Below are positions 23,051 to 58,460 of a DNA stretch of 64,000 bases, piece after piece. The stretch's first letter is position 1. Every line of letters starts with the position of its first letter. Made by a program: the position numbers and the translations under genes. The notes under the pieces are model-generated. The model saw only the letters and a list, made by a program, of their open reading frames with translations. It made no database searches and was not told the DNA's origin. This stretch comes from an uncultured Candidatus Saccharibacteria bacterium (GTDB lineage: Bacteria; Patescibacteriota; Minisyncoccia; UBA6257; UBA9933), in contig CAZXNT010000003.1 in assembly GCA_964642155.1 (NCBI GenBank), positions 899 through 64,898 of the forward strand. The letters are read 5' to 3'.

Positions 23051-23125
23051 TATTTGCTGTTCATGCGGCGAAAAAAGATTTTACGCTTGATGTAAATAAC
23101 GCTCGAGATTCTTACATATATAGTA

Positions 23126-23158
23126 AACCAAAAATCCCGCCATTGAAAGCGGGATTTT
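23126..23158 (-). terminator. rho-independent terminator after the KH-domain gene
   Basis: On the minus strand aaatcccgc-tttcaatg-gcgggattt followed by ttgg ttt. Confidence 0.5.
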
Positions 23159-23171
23159 CATTTTACTAAAT

Positions 23172-23471
23172 TTATATACCATCCGTAGGTCTGTTAAATG
23201 ACGGCCTTGGTCCTCTTGTTGAACCCTCCGGCTCAATAATCTTCAAATTGACGCGGGCATTGTTTTTGATGCCAACGATTTTGAGAAGTGAGCGGATGGA
23301 TTGCGCAGTGGCTCCTCCTTTGCCAATAATTTGCGCCATATCCGTGGCATTAACTTTGAGAGTTAAAAGCACCCCCATTTCATCAACCTTGCGTTCAACT
23401 TTTACTTCATCCGGATGGTCAACGATTGATTGTATAAGAAATTCAAGGAATTTCTGGTCTTTTGCTTCCAT
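23172..23471 (-). CDS. KH-domain RNA-binding protein (UPF0109/YlqC family)
   Basis: GKGGATAQSIRSLLK KH signature. Sits between rpsP and trmD as in the conserved rpsP-KH-rimM-trmD operon. Confidence 0.75.
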   Translation of the reverse strand: MEAKDQKFLEFLIQSIVDHPDEVKVERKVDEMGVLLTLKVNATDMAQIIGKGGATAQSIRSLLKIVGIKNNARVNLKIIEPEGSTRGPRPSFNRPTDGI

Positions 23472-23543
23472 GCTATTAAAATTCTTTCTTTATTTCTTTT
23501 TTTCTTTTTTTCGACCTTTCTTTAACATCCTGCAATTTTAAAT

Positions 23544-23828
23544 CTATTTGGCTTCTTCCGTCTTTTTCTTTTTATGGACAGCTATTTTTTTACTCTCAAT
23601 CACGCCCGCTTTTACCAATAAATTATGAATACTGGCTGTTGGCTGAGCGCCGGTTTTCAACCTATACGCTATTCTTTCTTTTTTAATTTCAAATTTTTTT
23701 GAAATGGGATCGTACCAGCCCAAATCCTCAACGCAATCCCCGCCCATTTTTGAGCGTTTTTCAGCCACAATAATCCGATAACTCGGCTGATGCTTTTTCC
23801 CTATTCTTTTTAATTTAATGGCTAACAT
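23544..23828 (-). CDS. rpsP: 30S ribosomal protein S16
   Basis: MLAIKLKRIGKKHQPSYRIIVAEKRSK N-terminus. Confidence 0.9.
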   Translation of the reverse strand: MLAIKLKRIGKKHQPSYRIIVAEKRSKMGGDCVEDLGWYDPISKKFEIKKERIAYRLKTGAQPTASIHNLLVKAGVIESKKIAVHKKKKTEEAK

Positions 23829-23854
23829 AGAATATAGCTTTTAGCTTATAGTTT

Positions 23855-26062
23855 TTAACTTTTAGTGTCAAGCTTCAACGATAATAACTTTGACGTGCCG
23901 TCGTCGTTCATTGTGACGCCGTATAAAACATCGGCCACTTCCATTACCGCCCGATTGTGGGTAACGATGATAAATTGCGTGTCTCCGGAAAAATCTTTAA
24001 CAAGATTGGCGAACATTTGGGAATTTTTTTCGTCTAAAGGCGCGTCAATTTCGTCCAAAACCAAAAACGGCGGCGGACTAACGGAAATTAAAGCGAAAAG
24101 CGCGGCGATGGAAACCAAACTTTTTTCTCCTCCGGAAAGCATCTCCACTCCGGTAATTTTTTTTCCGGGCAAATTCAAATCAATTTCAACGCCAATTTTT
24201 TCTTCCTGTTCTTGTTCATCATTTTGATTTTCACTATTGTTTTCGTCTTCGCCGTTTTTGATTTTTGAGATTTGATTTTTGATTTTAAGCTTAGCGTGTC
24301 CTCCTTTGAACATCAATCTGAAAAAATGGTCGAATTTTTCGTTTATCGCGCGAAAAGCGTTTAAAAATTCTTTATGAATCCGCTCTTTCAAGTCCTTGAT
24401 TAAAATTTTCAAATCATCTGTCGCTTTTTCCAAATCATTAATCTGACCGGATAAAAAATTATAATGTTTTTCCGTTTCTTCGGCTTCTTTTATCAAGGAT
24501 TGGTCTATTTCGCCGATACTCGCCAATTCTCCGCGCAAACGAAGCATTTTTCGCTCCGCCTCATAAATATTCACCTCTTCGGGGTCAATATTAAAGCCTT
24601 GCGGAGGCAATAATCTAAATTCGTTTATTGACCGGCCGATTTGCTCCAACTGCGCCTCTAAATCACTTAATTTCATATCAAGTTTTTCTCGCTCAAAAAT
24701 CATCTGCTGTTTCTTATTTTCCAGCAATCTTATTTCATCGCGTTTGGCATCCATCGCTTCAAACGCTTTTTGAAATTGCTTATTAAAATCCTGCAAGCCA
24801 GCGGTAATTTCCGCTTCCATTTTTTCAACTTGTTTTAAATCGGTTTCAATCAAAACGATTTCTTTAAGCAAATCGTTTTTTATTTTAATAATGTCTTCCA
24901 ATTCTTTGGATTTTGAAAAATCAGCCGGTTTATTGTTTTTGGAATCGGAGAAAAAAACGCCTATCTTTTCCACAACGCTTTTAATGACGGCCGCGACTTC
25001 TTTCATATTTTCAAAAACAATATCATCAAGAGATTTTTTTATTTCCTTGACCAGTCGCGCTAATTCATCTCCGTTAAAAGACAATTCTTCCTTTTTTTCT
25101 TTTTCGCCGTGAAAAGAAATATCGCCGAGAATTTCCGCTTTTGCCTCCAAACGGCTTAATTCTTTTTGGATTTTAAGATGTTTACTTGATAATTCATTTT
25201 TACGGGTTTTAACGGAATCAAAATTGCCGCCTTCGGATTTTTCTTCCAATTTTCTAACATTGCTTTCCAAAATTTTTAATTCCGCGATTTTCTCCGCAAT
25301 AATTTTGGCCGTTTCTTCCAATTCCGGCTCTAATTTTTGTTTATCTTTTTCTATTCCGCTTAATTTTAAAGAAAAATATCCGTCTTCAAGATTTTTCAAT
25401 TCGGTTTCCAATTGCGCTCTTTTTTCCCATTTGACAGTCTGGCGTTTCAACATTCTTAAGCGCGGCAAAACTTCTTCAACCATCGCTTTCACTCTTTCAA
25501 GATTGATATTGGTATTATTCAGTTTTCTTTCCGCTTCTGATTTTTTGATCTGAAATTCGCGAAGACCAAGAACTTCTTCAATCATTATTCTTCTTTCTTC
25601 GGGACTCACGCGGACAAACAAATCGCTGGAACCCTGATTAATTATCGCAAGTCCTTTTGTGCCAAGCCGCGCCCGAGCGAAAAAATCAACAATATCTTTT
25701 AACCTCACTTCCGATTTATTGAGAAAATATTGGGAAGCGCCGTCGCGCGCCACGCGCCGGACAATGGAAATTTCAGGAAATTCTTCATCAACCAATTTGG
25801 AATTATTTTCAAAATTAAGAGAAACTTGCGCCATTCCCGCCCGGCTTTTTTTCGACGTACCGGCAAAAATCAAATTTTCAATTTTATCGCCCCTTAAATT
25901 TTTAGCTTCCCGTTCTCCAAAAATCCAGCGAATAGCGTCAATAATATTGCTTTTGCCGCTTCCGTTCGGACCGACAATCGCGGTAATCCCTTTTGGAAAT
26001 TCCAAAACCGCCTTTGAAGCGAATGATTTAAATCCGTTAAGTTCCAATGATTTAAGAAACAT
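23855..26062 (-). CDS. smc: SMC-family ATPase (short, apparently hinge-less)
   Basis: N-terminal FKSF...GPNGSGKSNIIDAIRW, C-terminal LSGGEKSLVSIAALFAL...LDEIDAPLD. Lies in an rnc-smc operon context. At 735 aa it is shorter than canonical SMC. Confidence 0.7.
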   Translation of the reverse strand: MFLKSLELNGFKSFASKAVLEFPKGITAIVGPNGSGKSNIIDAIRWIFGEREAKNLRGDKIENLIFAGTSKKSRAGMAQVSLNFENNSKLVDEEFPEISIVRRVARDGASQYFLNKSEVRLKDIVDFFARARLGTKGLAIINQGSSDLFVRVSPEERRIMIEEVLGLREFQIKKSEAERKLNNTNINLERVKAMVEEVLPRLRMLKRQTVKWEKRAQLETELKNLEDGYFSLKLSGIEKDKQKLEPELEETAKIIAEKIAELKILESNVRKLEEKSEGGNFDSVKTRKNELSSKHLKIQKELSRLEAKAEILGDISFHGEKEKKEELSFNGDELARLVKEIKKSLDDIVFENMKEVAAVIKSVVEKIGVFFSDSKNNKPADFSKSKELEDIIKIKNDLLKEIVLIETDLKQVEKMEAEITAGLQDFNKQFQKAFEAMDAKRDEIRLLENKKQQMIFEREKLDMKLSDLEAQLEQIGRSINEFRLLPPQGFNIDPEEVNIYEAERKMLRLRGELASIGEIDQSLIKEAEETEKHYNFLSGQINDLEKATDDLKILIKDLKERIHKEFLNAFRAINEKFDHFFRLMFKGGHAKLKIKNQISKIKNGEDENNSENQNDEQEQEEKIGVEIDLNLPGKKITGVEMLSGGEKSLVSIAALFALISVSPPPFLVLDEIDAPLDEKNSQMFANLVKDFSGDTQFIIVTHNRAVMEVADVLYGVTMNDDGTSKLLSLKLDTKS

Positions 26063-26735
26063 ATTTCAGGGCATTCTTCGCTGCTTCCACTTCCGCTTCC
26101 TGTTTTGAAGAGCCTTTGCCTTCGGCAATTAATTTATCGCCGCAATAAACGCCCACCGTAAAAATCTTGGCATGGTCCGGCCCCTTTTCGGATAAAACTT
26201 CGTAAACGGGCGTGGTTTTTGATTTCTCCTGAATTATTTCCTGAAACAAACTTTTCGGGTCCTCGTAAAGCTTGTTTTTCATCACTTCATCAAGATGATT
26301 GATAACCGTTTTTTCAATAAAATTTTTCGCTATCGCGTATCCGGCGTCAAGATAAATCGCGCCCAAAAGCGCTTCAAAAACATTCGCCAAAATAACTTCT
26401 CGCGCCTTGCCCGTGTCTTTCGCTTCTCCGCGCGAAAGCAAAATGAAATTATCCAATTCCGTTTCTTTGGCGACAATCGCAAGCATCTGGTAATTAACCA
26501 AAGCCGCCCGAATACTCGTAAGGTCGCCTTCCGGCAAATCAGGAAATCTGTTAAAAAGTCCTTCGGTCGTTGCCAATTCCAAAACCGCGTCCCCTAAAAA
26601 TTCCAAACGCTCATTATGCGGCACCCCCCATTTGGGATTTTCATTCAAATAAGAACGATGAGTTAAAGCTTCTTTAAGAAAATCCTTATTTTTGAAAACA
26701 ACGCCGATTTTATTTTCTAATTTTGTAAAATCCAC
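26052..26735 (-). CDS. rnc: ribonuclease III
   Basis: ERLEFLGDAVLEL signature plus a dsRBD. Confidence 0.9.
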   Translation of the reverse strand: MDFTKLENKIGVVFKNKDFLKEALTHRSYLNENPKWGVPHNERLEFLGDAVLELATTEGLFNRFPDLPEGDLTSIRAALVNYQMLAIVAKETELDNFILLSRGEAKDTGKAREVILANVFEALLGAIYLDAGYAIAKNFIEKTVINHLDEVMKNKLYEDPKSLFQEIIQEKSKTTPVYEVLSEKGPDHAKIFTVGVYCGDKLIAEGKGSSKQEAEVEAAKNALKYVS

Positions 26736-26811
26736 CCGAGTTAGTAATTAGGAAATAATAATCAATAACTAGGGTTTAAAAAATCATTCCCTGGTTACTA
26801 GTTACTAATTT

Positions 26812-27237
26812 CTAGTTGCTAGTTCCTATTTGTTTATACACCGTCCCCAACACTCCGTTTATGAATTTTGAAGAATTCGGGCCGCTGTAATTTTTTGCTA
26901 ATTCTATCGCTTCGTTAATCGCCACTTTCTCCGGCACTTCTTTTTTATCCGCGTATAAAAGTTCGTAAAGCCCGATACGCAAAACATTCCTGTCAACTAT
27001 GGAAATCTGGCTCAACGGCCATTCCGGAGCGGCTTTTTCAATAATTTTATCAAGAGCGTCCAAATGTTCAATAACTCCCTTAATAATTCGCCAAGCGAAA
27101 TCCGGCTCATCAACGCCACTGCCAAATTCATTAAGATTCCGTTCAACAATTTTATTTAAATCCTCTTTTTTATTGTAAAAATCCCACTCGTAAAGAGATT
27201 GAAGAACAATACTTCTTATCAAGTGCCGAGTGGCCAT
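26812..27237 (-). CDS. nusB: transcription antitermination factor NusB
   Basis: NusB fold pattern. Adjacent to rpmF. Confidence 0.8.
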
Positions 27238-27431
27238 TATTTTTTAACTCTAATTTTCGGGACTTTTACAACCTTGCCTTTATAGCTTCCACAACTTGCG
27301 CAAATTTTATGCGGTCTGTTCGGCGCCTGACAATTCTGGCAAGCAAAAATCTGACTCGGTTTTAAAGCTAAGTGCGACCGCCTGCGGCCAACTTTAGATT
27401 TAGTATGATGTTTTACCGATACGCCACCCAT
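27237..27431 (-). CDS. rpmF: 50S ribosomal protein L32 (zinc-ribbon type)
   Basis: [14 protein letters not shown] plus CxxC...CxxC. Confidence 0.8.
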
Positions 27432-27470
27432 AGTTTAATCAGTTTAATTTTAAAATTTCAAAAAGTCAAC

Positions 27471-27893
27471 TTAAACGCCGGTGCTACCGAATCCGTTTTC
27501 TCCTCTTTGGCTTTCATTTAATTCAGAAACTATTTCAATTCGCGGCTGTTCAATTTTTTGGATAAGCATTTGGGCGATTTTAGAATTCTTTTTCACAATA
27601 AAATCTTCTTGCCCCAAATTTATTAAAACAACTTTTATTTCTCCGCGATAACCCGCGTCAATCACGCCAGCCATTGTTTTAACGCCATTTTTAACGGCCA
27701 AGCCGCTTTTATCCCAAACCAATCCGACATATCCTTCGGGGATTTACATTTTAACGCCGGTTCTTATTGCTTTTCTTTCCATTGGCTTCAAAACAATGTC
27801 TTCAACCGAATAAAAATCAAGCCCCGCGTCGCCCTTCGTCGCGTAATTAGGAACCGTTGCGTCTGAATCAATTTTTAAAATTTTAATTTTCAT
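27471..27893 (-). pseudogene. dut: dUTP diphosphatase interrupted by a single in-frame TAA (at 27744..27746)
   Basis: N-terminal 49 codons (MKIKILKIDSDATVPNYATKGDAGLDF...TGVKM), then TAA, then IPEGYVGLVWDKSGLAVKNG...GVIDAGYRGEI in the same frame. Confidence 0.6.
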
Positions 27894-27942
27894 AAAAATA
27901 TTTTATAGAAAAAATAAGGGACTAACAACTATTAATTTCCAT

Positions 27943-28833
27943 TTAATTTTGAACATTTAACAATTTTTGTTTAAGTTTATGCGTATTTCCGTATTTTAAC
28001 AACCCCAAATAAGAATTAATTGATTCTATTTTCGCGTCTGCGGTTATTTTTCTAAACATTCTTCTCTTTGTAGTTGTTCTCAAAACCCTATTATGCGGAA
28101 AATTTACCCAACCGAGAAAATCGACGCCCGAATCGAACGTTTTTATGGAAACCTTATCAGGATGAAGCGAGAGTTTTAATTGTATTTCTAAAAATTTGGA
28201 TATTTTAGAGATAAGATTTTCCAAATAATTTTTATTTTCCGAAAAAATTACAAAGTCGTCGGCATAACGGATATAATAACGAATTTTTAATTCTCTTTTA
28301 ATAAAATGATCAAATTTATTCATATAAACATTTACAAAAAGCTGGCTAGTGAGATTGCCAAGCGGAAGTCCGACACCAATTTTTCCTTCGGTATTAAAAC
28401 TATCTATAATCTGCGAAAGAAGCCATAAAATATCTTTATCCTTAATATGTTTCACCAAAATATTTTTTAATATTTCGTGGTCAATACTCGCAAAAAACTT
28501 TCTGATGTCGCATTTTAAAATCCAACATGTTTTGGTGTTGTTTTCGTTTGTAATACGCGCTAATTTTCTGAATCTGTTAATCGCCTTGTGTGTACCTTTT
28601 CTTAATCGGCAAGAAAAAGAGTCCGCTATGAATTTTTTGTCAAAATACGGATATAAAATACTATAAATAGCGCGATGAACAAGCCGGTCGCGAACACTTG
28701 CTTTATGAATATCTCTCGGTTTCGGGTCGTTAATTTTAAACGCTTCGTACCCTCCGTGTTGATACGATTTTCCCGCCAATTCCCGATGAAGCGATAAAAT
28801 ATTATCCAAAAAATGCAACGAAAATTCCGCCAC
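27943..28833 (-). CDS. diversity-generating retroelement (DGR) reverse transcriptase, main body
   Basis: RT motifs PRDIHKASVRDRLV, DGR-specific LPLGNLTSQLF (I/LGxxxSQ) and YADD (RYADDFVIF). About 300 aa with no maturase or endonuclease. The N-terminal LENLLVSWREFLRGKRK segment lies upstream of an in-frame TGA at 28840..28842 (ORF 28840..29022). Confidence 0.8.
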   Translation of the reverse strand: MAEFSLHFLDNILSLHRELAGKSYQHGGYEAFKINDPKPRDIHKASVRDRLVHRAIYSILYPYFDKKFIADSFSCRLRKGTHKAINRFRKLARITNENNTKTCWILKCDIRKFFASIDHEILKNILVKHIKDKDILWLLSQIIDSFNTEGKIGVGLPLGNLTSQLFVNVYMNKFDHFIKRELKIRYYIRYADDFVIFSENKNYLENLISKISKFLEIQLKLSLHPDKVSIKTFDSGVDFLGWVNFPHNRVLRTTTKRRMFRKITADAKIESINSYLGLLKYGNTHKLKQKLLNVQN

Positions 28834-28914
28834 ATCTTTTCATTTTCTTTTCCCGCGCAAAAACTCCCGCCACGATACAAGTAAATTCTCCAAAGATATG
28901 ATATTATTAAAAGT

Positions 28915-29313
28915 ATGACGAAGCCGTCTTACTCTCTCTCTCTCTCTCTCGGGAACGCATCCATCCTTCAGCGAATCAAAGAGGGATACTTGATTTGGGT
29001 TAATATTGTTCCGCATATTCAAAGAAGTAGTCGCTACACAATCGGCGCGCGAATTGAAAATAAGTTTCTTGATTTGCTGGAATTGTCATATATCGCCTAT
29101 TTTACGGAAAAAGAAAGGAAAATTGAAGAGATTAAAAAATGTATTTTAACTCTTGATACTCTCAAATTTTTAATCTCCATTGCTTGGGAAGCGAAAATCA
29201 TTTCCAATAAACAGTATGAAGAAGTCGCAGTTAAACTGAATGAAATCGGAAAAATGTTCGGCGGATGGAAAAACAGCTTAAAAAATCCGGAAAAGAAAAA
29301 CCGCGCTTTGTAA
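28915..29313 (+). CDS. Avd-like accessory protein (four-helix-bundle / 23S rRNA intervening-sequence protein family), opposite strand
   Basis: 132 aa. C-terminal LNEIGKMFGGWKNSL resembles Bordetella bAvd EVGRILGSWI. The (CT)9 tract falls at codons 6-12. Confidence 0.55.
   Translation: MTKPSYSLSLSLGNASILQRIKEGYLIWVNIVPHIQRSSRYTIGARIENKFLDLLELSYIAYFTEKERKIEEIKKCILTLDTLKFLISIAWEAKIISNKQYEEVAVKLNEIGKMFGGWKNSLKNPEKKNRAL
28932..28950. repeat. (CT)9C dinucleotide microsatellite
   Basis: ctctctctctctctctctc seen directly. Encodes SLSLSL in avd and ERERER in the upstream RT frame. Confidence 0.9.
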
Positions 29314-29332
29314 ACGCGGAAAAGGATTGACT

Positions 29333-29465
29333 TTCGGAGACGGAAAACGAACTTGTTGTTGTCATTCCACCTGTTCGAGGGCTTGGCATTGTTGTCGTTA
29401 AGCCACAAGCCATCATCATTCCTGTTGAGGTTGAACACGTTCGGATTGCCATCGCGGGCGGTTAT
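29333..29465 (-). repeat. DGR template repeat (TR)
   Basis: ~133 bp. About 97 percent identical to the VR except at adenines (minus-strand sense). Rich in AAY codons. Confidence 0.8.
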
Positions 29466-29781
29466 GTATGCCACGCCATCCAAACCACTGCCTATTTAGT
29501 CCGTTAAAACGGAAGAAATTGGGCTGTATTTTACTCGGCATCTTCAATGCCCCAGCGCCGCACACTAAGTTAATTTCTTTTTTTAGACAAAATATACACC
29601 ACTCTGTAAGAAGCCGTAACCGCTTACATTCTCGATTTATACTTGCCAGAAAGGTTTCAAAAAGCCGTAGCCGTTTAATACAACCAATCCGTAATAATTG
29701 TATCAAAAAAATCGGAAAAAATTAAAAGAATCAAAGGATCTAAGTGTTAAAGAATCAAAAAATTATAAAAAAATAAAATTT

Positions 29782-31587
29782 CTAAGTTTTTAACTTGCGG
29801 AGACGGAAAACGAACCTGCGGTTGCCACTCCACCTGAGCGAGGGCCTGGCAATGTCGTCGTGAAGCCACAAGCCAACAGCACCCCTGAGGAGGTAGAACA
29901 CGTACGGAAAGCCATCGCGGGCGGTAATTTGCTTCATGGCGATTAATATGTAATCAGGAGTGGAATTTTGGAGGCGGAGGTTGGGGCCGGTGTCTTGCGG
30001 GCAAAGTTCCAGACCGAGTTCTTCGGATCTTTGGTAGATTTCATCAGTGGTGGCGCCGTTGGGAAAGCCGAGGTCTTTAACGGTTAAGCGAACGAGATTG
30101 AGATGTTCTTTTTTTGAGACGGTGATTTTTTTCAGCATATCCATAGCATAATCGGAGATCTTGATGTTTTTTTCTCTCAGCTCTTTTTCCAGCTGGCTTC
30201 CGTCTTTTCCCTCCAGTTCCGCTTCCATTTTCTTTACCATTCCTTCAGGAAAAGAAGTGCCGATATGTTCCAAGTTTAATTGGAATACGCCCTTGAAGAG
30301 AGGGCCGATGTAGGCCTTGGTGTTTTTGCTGATTTCTTTTTGATTGAAAACGATTTGATTTGGTTCGCATTCAAAGACAATCGGCGCGTCTTCTTGGGGA
30401 TTTCTGGCTTTGATGATTTCGGTAATGCGGGGGTCTCTTTGATAGCCGAAACCTTCTATTGGTTCGTTGATTTCATAAAGGAAGATGAGGTCTTCTTTGG
30501 TGAGCGGTTCTTTCTTTTTGGTTTTGTTGTCTATGGCGGTGAGGAACTTCATGTCGGCGGATTTTTTCTCATACGCCTTGCCGTCGGGAAATTCGGAAAG
30601 TTTGTTTTTAACAACATCATTGATATGCGGATCAAGATTTTGTTCGTGGGCAATGCCACGGATTTCGGCGATGTCCCCGCCCTGCATTCTGATGGCGGCT
30701 CTGGGAATATTCGGCTTTCCGTTTTCGTCGTAAGAGTAGTAGACGTAAAAATCTCCGGCCTGAAGCTGCGCCTCAGCTGTTGATTCTCCGGCCGTGCACC
30801 AGCCAGTGCCATGCCCTTGAAGAGAATTGACGAGAGGCATATGGTCTTTTCCTTGGCGATATTTTACCCATTCGCCTTTAGTATTAGCGAGAACTTCCTC
30901 GGAAGCCAGAGTGACTTTATCTATGGCGAAGGCGTAGAGCTTGGCGAAGTTTTCTCCTTGGAGAAGTTTTTGGAATTCGGGGTCTTGTGGCTGGATTTTT
31001 CTTTGATATTTCTTTTCAATGGCGTCAAGAACATAAGCCAGCGCCTCGCGATTGATATCGGGAAAAGGTTTGGTTGTGCCTTTGGAGCGTTTAGTAAATT
31101 GTTTCTTTTCTTTGTCGTAGTCGCCCATGTCGAGAATACTGCGGAAAGCGTAATATTTCAGCCAATCGGGATAGATGGCGTCATTTGAGGAAAGATAATC
31201 AATCCAGTTATCAAGCGAACTTTTTTGGTCGGTGATTATAACTTCGGTTAATTGCTTCCGCATTTCTTCGGATATTTCAATCTCGCCATAGCCTTGTTCG
31301 CGGGCGAGACGCCTTTGATTTTCAAAATATGCTTCGGGGACTTCTTCTTCTTTTATTACGAATTTATCGTGAAGAATGTGTTTTAACGCTTCAACGCCCC
31401 GCTCGCGCTTAGCCGGCTCTTTGCGCTCGATAATTTCCGTAAAGCGATCCAGATAGTTTTGGATTTTGGTTTCGGGGTCTTGCGGAACTTTTTCGCCTGT
31501 GCGTTTTTCTGTACGCTTCGTCGCCGACTCCACTTCCGGAGCGTTATGCAAATCGTATTTCTTTTTGAGAAAGTCTGGTTGTTCCAT
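29782..31587 (-). CDS. DGR target protein with C-terminal variable repeat (CLec/FGE-like C-terminus), no obvious signal peptide
   Basis: C-terminus ITARDGFPYVFYLLRGAVGLWLHDDIARPSLRWSGNRRFVFRLRK aligns to the TR-encoded ITARDGNPNVFNLNRNDDGLWLNDNNAKPSNRWNDNNKFVFRLRK. Confidence 0.8.
   Translation of the reverse strand: MEQPDFLKKKYDLHNAPEVESATKRTEKRTGEKVPQDPETKIQNYLDRFTEIIERKEPAKRERGVEALKHILHDKFVIKEEEVPEAYFENQRRLAREQGYGEIEISEEMRKQLTEVIITDQKSSLDNWIDYLSSNDAIYPDWLKYYAFRSILDMGDYDKEKKQFTKRSKGTTKPFPDINREALAYVLDAIEKKYQRKIQPQDPEFQKLLQGENFAKLYAFAIDKVTLASEEVLANTKGEWVKYRQGKDHMPLVNSLQGHGTGWCTAGESTAEAQLQAGDFYVYYSYDENGKPNIPRAAIRMQGGDIAEIRGIAHEQNLDPHINDVVKNKLSEFPDGKAYEKKSADMKFLTAIDNKTKKKEPLTKEDLIFLYEINEPIEGFGYQRDPRITEIIKARNPQEDAPIVFECEPNQIVFNQKEISKNTKAYIGPLFKGVFQLNLEHIGTSFPEGMVKKMEAELEGKDGSQLEKELREKNIKISDYAMDMLKKITVSKKEHLNLVRLTVKDLGFPNGATTDEIYQRSEELGLELCPQDTGPNLRLQNSTPDYILIAMKQITARDGFPYVFYLLRGAVGLWLHDDIARPSLRWSGNRRFVFRLRKLKT
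29794..29928 (-). repeat. DGR variable repeat (VR) at 3' end of target gene
   Basis: About 22 substitutions relative to TR, every one at a TR adenine. Confidence 0.8.
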
Positions 31588-31649
31588 ATTGTTATTTTAT
31601 TACATAAAATTTACTATTTGTCAAACACAAAAATTCGGCACCTAAAATT

Positions 31650-32231
31650 TTATCCGCAAAGTTCCCTGATTATTTCATCAACCCGATTATGAAGTTCTTC
31701 AATCGAACCGTTGTTATCAATAATATAATCGGCGTTGTTTCTTAACCCTTTAATCTGAATCTCTGATTCTTGTTCAAGTTCTTTTTTAAATTGTTCAAAA
31801 GTTTTTGTATTATCGTCTGAATTTTCGCCACGAACTGAAATTCTTTTATATCTTTTCTCGACATCCGCCTCAATATAAATAAGCTTAAACCCCGGAAGGT
31901 CTTTTAAAAATTTTATATCCGACAATCTTCTTACGCCATCTATCACCAATATTTCATCTTCGCTGTTTTTCGCTTCTTTCGCTATGACCAACGACAAAAT
32001 ATCTTGGCCGAAATTATCACGCAATAAAGTAGAAAGTTTTTGCAAATTTTCGCGCGTCTCTCCCAAATAAAGCCTGTTTAAAATATCCCTGAGAATTGTT
32101 GAAAATCTAAAATTCTTACCATTATGATTTTTAACGATAAAATCCGTAACCGTTCCTTTGCCGCTCGCCATTTCGCCGGCTAATCCAAGAATTATTTTAT
32201 TCTTACATATCGTCATATTTCTGAATTTCAT
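31650..32231 (-). CDS. deoxynucleoside monophosphate kinase-like P-loop kinase (T4 gp1-like)
   Basis: GLAGEMASGKGTVTDFI and C-terminal IDNNGSIEELHNRV align to T4 dNMP kinase LSGVKRSGKDTTADFI ... ITNDGSLEELFSKI (from memory). Confidence 0.5.
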   Translation of the reverse strand: MKFRNMTICKNKIILGLAGEMASGKGTVTDFIVKNHNGKNFRFSTILRDILNRLYLGETRENLQKLSTLLRDNFGQDILSLVIAKEAKNSEDEILVIDGVRRLSDIKFLKDLPGFKLIYIEADVEKRYKRISVRGENSDDNTKTFEQFKKELEQESEIQIKGLRNNADYIIDNNGSIEELHNRVDEIIRELCG

Positions 32232-32709
32232 TATTTACCAAAACATACTCAACTTCCGCTTCCTTAAAAATTTCCTTGCTTCTTCCGCCAGCATGATAAT
32301 CCTTGGCGCAAACCACTTTTTTTATTCCTGAATTAATAATCATTTTCGCGCACGTATAACATGGAGTCATATTGCAATATAAAGTCGCGCCGTTAAGCGC
32401 CACTCCGAATCGCGCCGAATTAGCAATGGCATTTTGTTCCGCGTGGGCAGTCCTGATACAATGACGGGTTTGTGTCCCGTCCTCATGAATAACCGAATGC
32501 ATTTCATGCCCGGCATCATCGCAATGTTTCGCTCCAATCGGAGAACCGACATAACCGGTAGTCAAAATTCTTTTATCTTTAACAATAACGCAACCGGCTC
32601 TTCCTCTATCGCAAGTCGCGCGAGTGCTGATTACTTGAATAAGATTTAAAAAATATTCATCCCAAGAAGGACGCTGATGTTTTGTATCCATATTGATATA
32701 ATAAAACAA
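32203..32709 (-). CDS. dCMP deaminase (CMP/dCMP deaminase zinc-binding family)
   Basis: HAEQNAI and PCYTCAKMI zinc-binding motifs. Confidence 0.85.
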   Translation of the reverse strand: MFYYINMDTKHQRPSWDEYFLNLIQVISTRATCDRGRAGCVIVKDKRILTTGYVGSPIGAKHCDDAGHEMHSVIHEDGTQTRHCIRTAHAEQNAIANSARFGVALNGATLYCNMTPCYTCAKMIINSGIKKVVCAKDYHAGGRSKEIFKEAEVEYVLVNNEIQKYDDM

Positions 32710-32730
32710 ATAATAACTATTTTCAATAAA

Positions 32731-34233
32731 TTAAAAATCAAGTGATTTATCTTGAACATAAGACAAACCTTTTTTCAGCGCTATTTCCGCTTTTTGAAGT
32801 TCTGCGCCAACATCAAGCAAATGGTCCGGCCGGCTCAAAATCTCCAATTGAGCGATTTTTTTCATTATTTCCTTGGCGGTTTTAGCGTTAAAGCTCAATA
32901 ACTCCTCTCCTTGCGGTCCCTGAAAAACAGCCGAGATTTCTTCATTCTTCACATTAATCACCAGATATCCCCTTGGGTCTCTTTGAGTTTTCTCATCAAA
33001 AATCAAATTTGGCTCCCTTTCCCAAAACGCGCACTTCACCAATTGAGAAGCATTATTCCAATCTTGCTCATAAATATGAGCTGATTCAGAAGTAATTTTA
33101 AGTTGTCCCAATTCAAAACCCAATTCCTGACTTACCTTTTTTTGCAAAGTCCGCAAACCAAAAGCATTCGGAATCGCGCCCTTGAAAATATCATGGCTTC
33201 TAACCGTCGCTAAAAAATGAAGCTTGCCATTGCTTTGAAGCGCCTGTATCTGAGTGATGCATGGTGACTCTTTTGAAAAAGCATCAATTTCCGGCACCAA
33301 TGTTGTCGCCACGGCGCGCCGTGAATCCGGAGAATCTCTAAGCTGTTTAATAATTACCTCTTTAATCTGATCCAAATTTCCATCACTTAGAGGATATTTC
33401 ATCAAACGATTTCCATAAGTATAAGAGATTCCGGCGGGCGGTTCTGGCGATAAAAAAACCGAATAGTATTCTTTAAGGTCTTTTTCAATCGCACCCGTAA
33501 CTTTTTGCAATTCTTCCGGCCATTCTAAGACCAATGACAAGTCCGGTTCATCCGGGTCTTCATCACTTATCACCCAAGTTACTCCAATCAATTCCCTTTG
33601 TTGATAACCATATTGTGTTCCTTTAATCAAACCGTATCTCATAATTCTTTCAACCACTCTTAACCATGCTTCAACGATTGTTTTCCCGCGCACCAACCAA
33701 CCGACTTCTTCCGAAGGAAATGTTTCCACCTCTTCTAAAATAGCGTCAGAAAATTTTATTGGCTCCATATATGATTCGCCGGCTATCTTTGTATCTTTAA
33801 TATATTTTTCCGCTTCTTCAAATGAAAGATGGCTTATGTCAATCAACTCAACGTTACTGATAATCTTTTTCACAATTTCTATATCAATTTCTTTTTCCAG
33901 TTTGAATTTTGTGCCCTTTACGAAACCGTCAGAATCAATACCTTCTTTCCAGATTTTTTCAATTAACGATTTTCCCATTAAACCGAATTGAGTGTTGGAA
34001 AGCCCGCCGTTGCCCCAGATAAAAAATTTTCTAATCTGAGGATTTAAGGCCAAGTTGCGGAAAATTACATTAACTCCGGAACGACTATAAAGCGTGCCCA
34101 AAATTGCGGTTTTTTCCTGCAAAACTTTGGATTTATTAAAAACCGCCTCAGCTTCATTCCAAATAGTGCAAAAGCCTAAAGATTTCCCGCTTCCTAAAAA
34201 CACTTTGTATTTTTCCGGCTGATAAAGATTCAT
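32731..34233 (-). CDS. thymidylate synthase (ThyA)-fold protein with ~190-aa N-terminal and ~120-aa C-terminal extensions
   Basis: Core RRAVATTLVP...SPCITQIQALQ...LHFLATVRSHDIFKGAIPNAFG...SESAHIY matches the ThyA/dCMP-hydroxymethylase catalytic Cys-Pro and R..D motifs. At 500 aa it is about twice canonical length. Confidence 0.55.
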   Translation of the reverse strand: MNLYQPEKYKVFLGSGKSLGFCTIWNEAEAVFNKSKVLQEKTAILGTLYSRSGVNVIFRNLALNPQIRKFFIWGNGGLSNTQFGLMGKSLIEKIWKEGIDSDGFVKGTKFKLEKEIDIEIVKKIISNVELIDISHLSFEEAEKYIKDTKIAGESYMEPIKFSDAILEEVETFPSEEVGWLVRGKTIVEAWLRVVERIMRYGLIKGTQYGYQQRELIGVTWVISDEDPDEPDLSLVLEWPEELQKVTGAIEKDLKEYYSVFLSPEPPAGISYTYGNRLMKYPLSDGNLDQIKEVIIKQLRDSPDSRRAVATTLVPEIDAFSKESPCITQIQALQSNGKLHFLATVRSHDIFKGAIPNAFGLRTLQKKVSQELGFELGQLKITSESAHIYEQDWNNASQLVKCAFWEREPNLIFDEKTQRDPRGYLVINVKNEEISAVFQGPQGEELLSFNAKTAKEIMKKIAQLEILSRPDHLLDVGAELQKAEIALKKGLSYVQDKSLDF

Positions 34234-34847
34234 AAATTTTTCTCCACCTCCTTTTTTATAGATTCAAAAACTTTTACTATCGACCTATTGCCGTCAATGA
34301 TAATTATTTTTTCGTCCGGTAAAACCTCCGGAAGCATAAGAAAATTACGGCGCGCCTCTTCTTGAAATTCTTTTTGTTCAAAAACTTCTTTATGAGATCT
34401 ATTGCTGTCTTTTACAACGCGTTCAAGAGCCACATCAACCGGCGTATCAATAATTATCGCTAAATCCGGCGCTAAAATTCCTTTGTGCATTTCAAAAATT
34501 TTTTCAAAAGAGACTCCTTGAATTTTCTGATAAACCAACGTTACATATTTATACCTGTCGCAAACAACATGAATGCCGCTATTCAAAAAATCGCCAATTA
34601 ATTCCACGTGAACCTTTCTGTCTTTAACAAATAATTCCGCTAAAAGTTCGGCATTATCTTTAGGATTAATGCCTTCTTTTAAAAGCCGCCTTATTTCCGC
34701 GTAATATTCGCTATTATACGGCTCTCTGGTTAAAAAAATATGGTTTTTCTTATCACTGTCAAAAATAAAATCCACTAGTAATTTTATTTGCGTTCCCTTG
34801 CCACAACCGTCAATTCCGTCTATTACTATAAATTTTCCTTTTTTCAT
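34230..34847 (-). CDS. tmk: thymidylate kinase
   Basis: FIVIDGIDGCGKGTQ P-loop and DRY-like motif. Confidence 0.85.
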   Translation of the reverse strand: MKKGKFIVIDGIDGCGKGTQIKLLVDFIFDSDKKNHIFLTREPYNSEYYAEIRRLLKEGINPKDNAELLAELFVKDRKVHVELIGDFLNSGIHVVCDRYKYVTLVYQKIQGVSFEKIFEMHKGILAPDLAIIIDTPVDVALERVVKDSNRSHKEVFEQKEFQEEARRNFLMLPEVLPDEKIIIIDGNRSIVKVFESIKKEVEKNL

Positions 34848-57336: not shown

Positions 57337-57410
57337 TGCGGGATCATCTAGTGGTAGGATGCGACTCTCTGAAAGTCGTCACCTTGGTTCGAATCCAAGT
57401 CCCGCAGCCA
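57337..57410 (+). tRNA. tRNA-Gln (anticodon CTG), CCA encoded
   Basis: Manual fold. U1:A72 acceptor TGCGGGA/TCCCGCA, anticodon loop CTCTGAA, T loop TTCGAAT, discriminator G, CCA. Confidence 0.85.
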
Positions 57411-57587: not shown

Positions 57588-57603
57588 GGGGGGGGTGGGG
57601 GGG
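57588..57603. repeat. homopolymeric G8-T-G7 tract
   Basis: ggggggggtggggggg seen directly, ~85 bp upstream of the XRE gene. Confidence 0.9.
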
Positions 57604-57688: not shown

Positions 57689-57934
57689 ATGGAATACTAT
57701 ACTTACAATGTAATGCCTAGAGCAATTTATACAAAAGACCATAATGCAATCGTTGAACGCTTGAAAAAGGCGCGTCTTGAGTCTGGGCTTGGACAGGTTG
57801 ATGCTTCAAAGAAACTTGGCAAGACACAGTCTTATCTTTCAAAAATTGAATCTGGGCAAAGACGATTTGATGTTTTGCAATTAAAAGAATTTGCAAAAAT
57901 TTATAAAAAGGACATCAATTATTTCATCAAATAA
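57689..57934 (+). CDS. XRE-family (Cro/C1-type) HTH regulator
   Basis: QVDASKKLGKTQSYLSKIESGQR helix-turn-helix. Confidence 0.7.
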   Translation: MEYYTYNVMPRAIYTKDHNAIVERLKKARLESGLGQVDASKKLGKTQSYLSKIESGQRRFDVLQLKEFAKIYKKDINYFIK

Positions 57935-57938
57935 GAAT

Positions 57939-58460
57939 ATGGAAATAAATTCTCATAAAACGATTGTAGGTATCATTGGTGGTCATTCTCATAATACAAA
58001 CCAACAGGCATTATCTCTTGCAGAAAAAACTGGGGAACAATTAGCGAAACTTGGTATTACTATTGCTTGCGGTGGCGAGGATGGAATTATGGAAGCAATT
58101 TGTAAAGGAGCAAAACAATGCGGTGGCACAACAATAGCCATCACTAAAAGTAACAAAAAAGGGGATGCGAATAAGTATGTTGATTATGTAATTCCAACAT
58201 CGCTTGATCTCGCTTTTATGAATGTCCTCGCTTGGTCATCTGACGCGGTGATTGCATTTGATGGGCGTTTTGGAACGATGTGTGAAATTGGTTTAATTCT
58301 CGATATCGGTAGACCTTTGGTGCTTCTTGGTAAACATGAGTTAATTTATACCGAGAAGATAAGGGTTCAGAACTTTGCTCATTTTAAGGAGTACTCTGAT
58401 GAAAATATTCAGAAAGCTATTGATTTTGTAATACAACACATTCCTAAAAATATCTCGTAA
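57939..58460 (+). CDS. LOG/TIGR00725-family Rossmann-fold protein
   Basis: IVGIIGGHSH...ITIACGGEDGIMEA...DAVIAFDGRFGTMCE. Start taken at the internal Met just after the HTH stop. Confidence 0.6.
   Translation: MEINSHKTIVGIIGGHSHNTNQQALSLAEKTGEQLAKLGITIACGGEDGIMEAICKGAKQCGGTTIAITKSNKKGDANKYVDYVIPTSLDLAFMNVLAWSSDAVIAFDGRFGTMCEIGLILDIGRPLVLLGKHELIYTEKIRVQNFAHFKEYSDENIQKAIDFVIQHIPKNIS

Follow-up and report, generated by a model that had tools for sequence, protein, structure and literature searches.

We analysed 64,000 nt of DNA from an uncultured Candidatus Saccharibacteria bacterium (assembly GCA_964642155.1, contig CAZXNT010000003.1, positions 899-64,898 of the forward strand), hereafter called the window. 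It contains the control end of a diversity-generating retroelement (DGR) of the type found in the candidate phyla radiation (CPR), with the architecture known as B3, in which a target gene carrying the variable repeat (VR) is followed by the template repeat (TR), a reversed accessory variability determinant gene (avd) and the reverse transcriptase (RT) gene. Our reading of this element, which we hold with reasonable confidence, is that avd and RT are interlocked head to head and share a repeat that would act as a switch for both, and that the window copy stands in the ON register of this switch with an RT inactivated by an in-frame TGA. With somewhat less confidence, we consider it likely that a large clade of CPR/Patescibacteria DGRs has such a built-in phase switch, made of interlocked ATG codons, a 34-codon antisense overlap and a shared (GA)n or poly-G tract, and that about two thirds of its natural copies are OFF at the consensus level. 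The features of the window on which this reading is based are the following.

27943..28839, minus strand: RT body (fingers, palm and thumb), with PLGNLTSQ and YADD; the end coordinate includes the stop codon
28840..28842, minus strand: in-frame TGA at RT codon 59, in place of a conserved Arg/Lys codon
28843..29016, minus strand: RT leader and first part of the N-terminal extension (NTE) subdomain, 58 codons from the ATG at 29016
28915..29313, plus strand: avd, 132 aa from the ATG at 28915, Pfam bAvd PF22296; residues 1-14 (MTKPSYSLSLSLGN) are a leader that runs through the repeat, and the conserved N-terminal segment starts at about Ala15
28915..29016, both strands: head-to-head overlap of avd and RT, 102 nt, in codon register
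28932..28950: (CT)9C on the plus strand, (GA)9 on the RT strand, presumed slipped-strand switch
29301..29319, minus strand: G+C-rich hairpin and then a T-run, putative TR terminator (consensus scan)
29330..29462, minus strand: TR core, 133 nt (TR/VR alignment)
29793..29925, minus strand: VR (TR/VR alignment)
29782..31587, minus strand: DGR target gene, 601 aa, whose last ~45 residues are encoded by the VR

The RT frame opens at the minus-strand ATG 29016..29014 (a TTG at 29022 lies just upstream), reads MRNNINPNQVSLFDSLKDGCVPERERERVRRLRHTFNNIISLENLLVSWREFLRGKRK and then meets the TGA at 28842..28840 ('tca' on the plus strand), beyond which another 298 codons of the same frame, beginning with KDVAEF..., lead to the stop at 27943. 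The joined protein matched Pfam RVT_1 (1e-23), and its best solved relative was the RT of a Bordetella phage (bRT, PDB 8ub7; E = 8e-43, query residues 30-329 aligned to chain residues 3-289). It clusters with Patescibacteria DGR RTs; its homologues are 60-79% identical, and the N-terminal motif is conserved among them. The signatures of the DGR clade, i.e. the NTE motif, [LI]GxxxSQ in motif 4 (PLGNLTSQ) and YxDD (YADD), are all present, in an open reading frame (ORF) cut by the TGA. The avd ORF matched the bAvd family at 5.2e-17 (62.7 bits, with a curated cut-off of 40), the alignment beginning at residue 28. A first-pass annotation of this DNA had reported that the RT N-terminus is cut from its body by the TGA at 28840-28842, that an Avd-like gene on the plus strand overlaps this N-terminus with its 5' end, and that a (CT)9C tract lies in the overlap at avd codons 6-12; coordinates and translations, together with the bAvd match, confirmed all three points.

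Both further hallmarks of a DGR were found in the window: an Avd, and a TR and a VR whose only differences fall at adenines of the template, the VR lying in the 3'-terminal part of the target gene. Over the 133-nt core, an AAC/AAT-rich sequence, there are 22 mismatches, all of which fall at TR adenines (22 of 39), and 21 of them are at codon positions 1-2. No Pfam domain was found in the 601-aa target protein. In the window, avd occupies the interval from TR to RT and is encoded on the other strand from RT. All 76 related genome loci that gave an Avd match show the same inverted avd immediately ahead of RT. The B3 architecture, TR-(avd)-RT, accounts for 90% of CPR DGRs, and the B3 cassettes described have the same gene order and orientation as the window, namely VR-bearing target, TR, reverse-strand avd and RT (Wu et al. 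2018, NAR, PMC5758913). The opposite-strand avd is an already known architecture and as such is not unusual. The description of B3 cassettes in PMC5758913 makes no mention of a codon-registered avd/RT overlap, interlocked starts or a simple repeat. In the DGR literature that was searched, no paper was found that connects simple repeats, phase variation or an antisense overlap with avd or RT of DGRs, and an earlier mention in Paul et al. 2017, on CPR DGRs, is possible; the overlap in codon register with interlocked starts and a putative switch is apparently undescribed.

The overlap comprises the first 34 codons of avd and of RT, antisense to each other and in codon register, so that avd codon i faces RT codon 35-i. 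The two start codons are interlocked: read on the other strand, the avd ATG (28915-28917) is the CAT codon of RT His34, and the RT ATG (29014-29016) is the CAT codon of Avd His34. RT codons 1-29 form a leader, antisense to avd codons 6-34, and codons 30-58 align to bRT residues 3-31. This arrangement was followed in about 200 related loci in all, made up of the 76 genome loci with an Avd match and of metagenome loci from a frame-neutral contig scan, which gave at least 120 further loci, 113 of them usable; loci L085-L163 come from groundwater sets of Hainich and Rifle. Among the metagenome matches listed, the two ATG codons were kept in 112 of 113 and in 113 of 113 loci. At RT His34 the relatives use CAT in 59 cases and CAC in none, as compared to 686 CAT and 419 CAC at other RT His codons; at Avd His34 the figures are 52 and 0, as compared to 50 and 43 at other Avd His codons.

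Codon usage and stop codons in the overlap were analysed in 126 non-redundant loci with a (GA)-type tract, 92 of which are currently out of frame. The RT leader, from the ATG to the tract, contained no stop codon in 126 of 126 loci, nor did the Avd leader in 125 of 125, and the 92 out-of-frame loci are included in these counts. Codons whose reverse complement is a stop were then compared between the overlap and the gene bodies. In the avd overlap, none of 328 Leu codons is TTA/CTA, as compared to 23% in the Avd body, and none of 232 Ser codons is TCA (26%); in the RT leader, the corresponding values were 0 of 194 (29% in the RT body) and 0 of 247 (19%). The CAT-only bias at both His34 codons was present in all three classes of frame relation between the two genes. 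These data indicate that the start codons and leader ORFs of avd and RT are kept by selection, even where they are out of frame. Since the leaders are free of stops and codons that would create antisense stops are absent, both leaders seem to be translated often enough to be maintained, which would place the repeat inside both coding sequences. Codon-position entropy does not tell the two coding strands apart, since in a codon-registered antisense arrangement the middle bases pair with each other (NTN with NAN) and both frames of the overlap look conservative. With its reciprocal ATG and His codons, the overlap is in itself a striking case of dual coding.

The 16-mer AAATATCCCTCTTTGA (RT strand), which lies within the overlap in the window and in its relatives, is nearly invariant even at synonymous sites and encodes IKEGYL on the avd strand. 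It holds a Shine-Dalgarno (SD)-like AAGAGGGA located 5 nt before a conserved TTG, codon 26 of avd. Its near-invariance is accounted for by dual coding, and an internal avd start or a nucleic-acid signal may also be present.

The (CT)9C tract begins at the third base of avd codon 6, ends with codon 12 (SLSLSL) and, on the other strand, occupies RT codons 23-29 (ERERER). The first-pass annotation had located it in the overlap, at avd codons 6-12, which was correct and incomplete in that the tract is also inside the RT leader, so that it would switch RT and Avd together. It is the sole dinucleotide repeat of at least five units in the 64 kb. Such a tract appeared in 0 of 100 shuffles, and dinucleotide-preserving shuffles did not give even a 14-nt version. 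As in simple sequence repeat (SSR) contingency loci, the repeat is in the 5' coding region and a change in unit number shifts the frame. In silico, (CT)6, (CT)9 and (CT)12 left both ORFs of the window open; with (CT)7, (CT)8, (CT)10 and (CT)11 both ended early, Avd after 24-30 aa and the ORF of the RT leader after 27-37 aa.

The tract is a property of the family. In 44 of the 76 genome loci the junction holds, as read on the RT strand, a (GA)n tract of 10-43 nt, and about 20, which belong to a deeper clade, have a run of at least 8 G; in the 113 metagenome loci, the tract measured 11-37 nt among the matches listed. The bodies of avd and RT fell into three frame classes in the proportion 34:49:43 (126 non-redundant loci), and into 25:39:35 in the dereplicated metagenome set, again among the matches listed (p = 0.21 with respect to uniformity). 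The first class, to which the window belongs, is the only one that puts both ATG codons in frame. Three relatives lack a repeat at the junction, and all three are in frame.

In the poly-G clade (L018, L021, L023, L041, L043, L051-L053, L056, L059, L060, L066, L070, L072, L074, L075, L079 and L080) the run has 8-12 residues, encodes PPP in Avd and is located at the same junction. Here RT has its own ATG downstream of the run, and only avd reads across the tract.

Among close relatives, the tract length differed between contigs that were otherwise nearly identical, as listed here.

L168, L137 and L107: tracts of 15, 17 and 19 nt; 0-3 mismatches over 1.4-1.9 kb
L095 and L192: tracts of 23 and 25 nt; 4 mismatches in 6.6 kb
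L126 and L155: tracts of 29 and 37 nt (four units); 18 substitutions, all in one VR
L002 and L011: tracts of 13 and 17 nt; flanks 92% identical, frame class 0 versus class 1

The junction repeat mutates far faster than its surroundings. In the pair L126/L155, 16 of the 18 substitutions are at TR-adenine sites of a VR located downstream of RT on the opposite strand (RT-sense +1160..+1253 from the conserved 16-mer), which indicates that the DGR of L126/L155 is active in nature and is evidence of natural activity for DGRs of this family.

On these grounds, a slipped-strand phase switch that acts on Avd and RT together is the best-supported reading of the junction. Gain or loss of one 2-nt unit by slipped-strand mispairing would shift the avd and RT ORFs together. 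Only every third repeat number (6, 9 and 12 in the window) would permit full-length Avd and RT, and other lengths would yield peptides of less than 40 aa. The repeat would thus be a stochastic and reversible ON/OFF switch of the whole mutagenic machinery, changes in its length being expected to switch protein expression. That start codon and leader ORF are kept in OFF alleles implies a reversible state. The proposal of the first-pass annotation, that Avd expression and DGR activity could be phase variable, is supported by the comparison with related genomes, since in about 200 loci the tract is conserved in place, its length is hypervariable, and starts and leaders are kept; the part of the proposal for which no counterpart was found is switching in the window population itself, (CT)9 being present in all three samples of it.

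An alternative view is that the repeat is a neutral, indel-prone spacer located outside both coding regions, with Avd starting from the TTG at codon 26, RT from a start past the repeat, and the upstream ATG codons incidental. The TTG and the AAAGAGGGATA that precedes it are almost invariant, with the SD-like AAGAGGGA ahead of the TTG, and the gene calls of two Logan contigs start Avd at this codon (107 aa); moreover, the Pfam bAvd alignment starts only at residue 28, and the uniform frame classes would follow from such a spacer. However, an invariant TTG/AAA/GAG is also expected from dual coding of the RT leader peptide QISLFD, and the poly-G clade has no TTG at avd codon 26. As for RT, 156 (GA)-type loci were examined for start codons, and some RT start after the repeat was present in 53 of them, whereas no canonical start between the repeat and His34 was found in the other 103, the window included. 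Neutrality is also difficult to reconcile with the absence of CAC at 111 His codons (38-46% expected) and the conservation of both ATG codons, with the complete avoidance of stop-generating codons in both leaders, out-of-frame loci included, and with the in-frame state of the relatives without repeat. We therefore consider the neutral spacer quite unlikely.

Another possibility is that the repeat acts on RNA, with RNA polymerase or the ribosome slipping on (GA)n/(CU)n or poly-G. Some of the messages would then be in frame at any DNA length, and the tract would be an attenuator keeping Avd and RT low and not an ON/OFF device. The near-uniform frame classes, without enrichment of the ON class, and the conservation of both ATG codons and leader ORFs in every frame class would be explained in this way. 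In transcriptional slippage on long tracts, the 9-bp RNA:DNA hybrid can realign by 2 nt, and the tracts observed here, up to 43 nt, would be long enough for it. On the other hand, differences in length between otherwise identical contigs were observed at the DNA level, and DNA slippage certainly occurs; in addition, the efficiency of RNA slippage on dinucleotide tracts of 10-13 nt is not established. We regard slippage on RNA as an unlikely replacement for the DNA switch. The two processes are not mutually exclusive, and RNA slippage may contribute.

The population to which the window belongs was compared across runs by means of Logan contigs, i.e. at the level of the consensus sequences of assemblies. 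Contigs from SRR13723394, SRR13723396 and SRR13723397 (loci L083, L082 and L001), independently assembled and covering window positions 25792-30645, 23074-34818 and 28085-31487, respectively, were 100% identical to the window, and the TGA, the (CT)9 tract and the VR were the same in all three. The 90% clusters of Avd and RT contained as members only the same DNA, differently called, and no within-species variation is visible there. In fact, gene callers disagree on identical DNA, RT being given 278 aa by NCBI and 291 aa in Logan, and Avd 107 or 132 aa. A search with the exact flanks of the window in JGI metagenomes found no repeat variants of the same species.

Several of our observations weigh against a phase switch of both genes. 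The three assemblies of the window population all carry (CT)9 at consensus level, and no switching was seen; differences in repeat number on near-identical backgrounds were met with only in the relatives, where some of the contigs concerned have low coverage. The ON frame represents about 27% of the relatives and is not enriched, as would be found also if the frame had no consequence, and the short, more stable tracts showed no trend towards the ON frame among relatives. Near-uniform frame classes would fit rapid neutral switching, and just as well expression that does not depend on the frame, such as RNA slippage would provide. The SD-like AAGAGGGA and the conserved TTG could give a shorter, repeat-independent Avd, and in about one third of the (GA)-type relatives RT might be initiated past the repeat. 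A promoter scan of the locus gave results at chance level and is uninformative.

The window copy has an intact TR/VR pair and a repeat that stands in the ON register; its RT is interrupted by the TGA. For this codon the first-pass annotation had left a choice between a sequencing error, a pseudogenising mutation and a recoding site. We favour the second of these: the TGA is most likely a genuine and probably recent inactivating mutation. In 32 aligned homologues the position is occupied by Arg, within GKRK-R-KDVAEF. Of 177 related RT genes, 152 have CGN/AGR here and 19 have AAR; CGA (27 cases) and AGA (26 cases) are each one substitution away from TGA. None of 176 related RTs has a stop at this position.

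An error of sequencing or assembly, with an intact RT behind it, would require a change of one single base from CGA or AGA, and consensus sequences of metagenome-assembled genomes do contain errors. However, the window agrees at 100% across the site with the contigs assembled independently from the three runs, and the site is in neither a repeat nor a homopolymer. We consider an error very unlikely.

A TGA that is tolerated is also conceivable, either decoded, through near-cognate tRNA-Trp read-through or a reassigned codon, or bypassed by re-initiation at the GTG at 28833, in which case RT would be made in two pieces, with an N-terminal fragment still able to assemble with the body. Among stop codons UGA is the leakiest, and read-through could leave RT some activity; one relative has TGG (Trp) at this very position, and both facts count against complete inactivation. 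The GTG begins 7 nt past the stop, behind a purine-rich stretch, and apart from the TGA the RT ORF, the TR/VR pair, avd and the repeat frame all look intact. On the opposite side, TGA is a normal terminator in the window, where it ends five real genes, each with further stops soon after it, and is in-frame in no other real gene, which shows that the codon is not reassigned. An alternative code with UGA as Gly or Trp, as in some CPR, was ruled out on the same grounds. Neither a recurrent in-frame UGA nor a recoding signal was found, the Rfam scan giving no SECIS (selenocysteine insertion sequence)-like element or other Rfam family near the TGA. No relative has a stop at this position, and the VR is identical in the three samples, giving at consensus level no sign of ongoing mutagenic retrohoming. 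The split would moreover fall within the NTE subdomain. We consider a tolerated TGA very unlikely.

The location of the split deserves attention, because a downstream RT start would have made the upstream segment irrelevant, as the first-pass annotation had pointed out. A candidate for such a start is the GTG at 28833, two codons past the TGA, and yet the upstream segment is still relevant: RT residues 30-58, which precede the TGA, correspond to bRT residues 3-31 of the NTE subdomain (window residue 30 being equivalent to bRT residue 3). In the cryo-electron microscopy structure of bRT, the NTE forms an extensive interface with Avd, and the conserved Lys29, on a loop that Avd braces, contacts the 5' phosphate of the template (bioRxiv 10.1101/2023.10.23.563531). 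In the window RT this Lys corresponds to K56, three codons before the TGA, and a product re-initiated at the GTG would lack the NTE region that contains it. We infer that the TGA abolishes RT activity, and the window copy is most likely a recently inactivated DGR, silenced by mutation and not by its switch.

Decay is not rare in the family of this RT, since 9 of 177 related RTs (~5%) are disrupted by a frameshift or a nonsense codon. In public assemblies, nonsense codons or frameshifts in the RT body are carried by L133, L144, L181, L085, L092, L110, L150 and L157, and in several cases a nonsense codon stands where Trp or Arg would be expected. Beside RT, the dUTPase gene (27471..27893, minus strand) contains an in-frame TAA at 27744..27746 (...GVKM*IPEGY...), the same in all three Logan assemblies; the joined dUTPase matches positions 3-129 of the 129 of the Pfam PF00692 profile. 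Two nonsense-interrupted genes, RT and dUTPase, are thus found within 1.1 kb, which suggests local decay. For the window copy itself the practical message is an ordinary one, i.e. that its DGR is probably dead by nonsense mutation.

A close parallel to the junction is offered by the SSR contingency loci of Neisseria, Haemophilus and Campylobacter, including the phasevarions. There too, a homopolymer or dinucleotide repeat lies just past the start codon, the frame state varies among close relatives, start and leader remain intact in OFF alleles and, in phasevarions, the switched gene itself generates diversity. The differences are that here one repeat is contained in two antisense-overlapping ORFs and would shift both, that the host is an uncultured CPR bacterium, and that the element controlled is a retroelement. 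In the hifA/hifB region of Haemophilus influenzae, as van Ham and co-workers reportedly described in 1993, a (TA)n repeat in the overlapping promoters of divergent fimbrial genes changes the -10/-35 spacing and exerts transcriptional control. The likeness is that one single dinucleotide repeat between two divergent genes controls both at once; unlike in hifA/hifB, the repeat of the window is within both coding leaders, and control would be translational, through the reading frame.

With respect to the DGR of the Bordetella phage BPP-1, the window element shares a homologous RT, the NTE motif with the GKR loop, an accessory protein of the bAvd family and adenine-specific changes from TR to VR. 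It differs in orientation, given that avd, TR and brt are co-oriented in BPP-1 and avd is reversed in the window, and in the RT N-terminus: the start of bRT corresponds to residue 28 of the window RT, and a 29-residue leader through the repeat is added in the CPR clade. Neither a repeat nor an overlap is known in the BPP-1 DGR.

DGRs are among the strongest natural protein diversifiers and are especially abundant in CPR. If our reading of the junction is correct, a system for targeted hypermutation would in turn be under the control of a stochastic repeat switch, a form of bet-hedging in which the mutator is off in most cells and on in a minority. It would also explain why avd and RT of CPR are often annotated as truncated or without a start. 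The logic of contingency loci and DGRs are two known things, and it is their arrangement that would be new.

Some minor observations concern the surroundings of the TR and VR. On its own strand, the TR is followed immediately by the hairpin at 29301..29319 (minus strand), CCGCGTTTACAAAGCGCGG followed by TTTTTCTTTT, which shares bases with the avd stop codon. This element resembles an intrinsic terminator of the TR transcript and may act as one, or it may be a counterpart of the spacer RNA of the Bordetella DGR. The spacer between VR and TR (29463..29792, minus strand) consists of 330 nt of non-coding DNA, in which the Rfam scan, with only two sub-threshold matches in all, gave a match to RT-7 RNA (RF03028) at 29586..29635, with 21.7 bits against a gathering threshold of 116.8 and E = 0.04. 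This match is probably due to chance, although an RNA element preceding the TR may be present in the spacer. Away from the DGR, a further simple repeat, G8-T-G7, is located at 57588..57603. The intergenic region that holds it is bounded by tRNA-Gln (57337..57410) and by a small ORF in the region 57891..58460, and the tract may mark the border of an integrated element.

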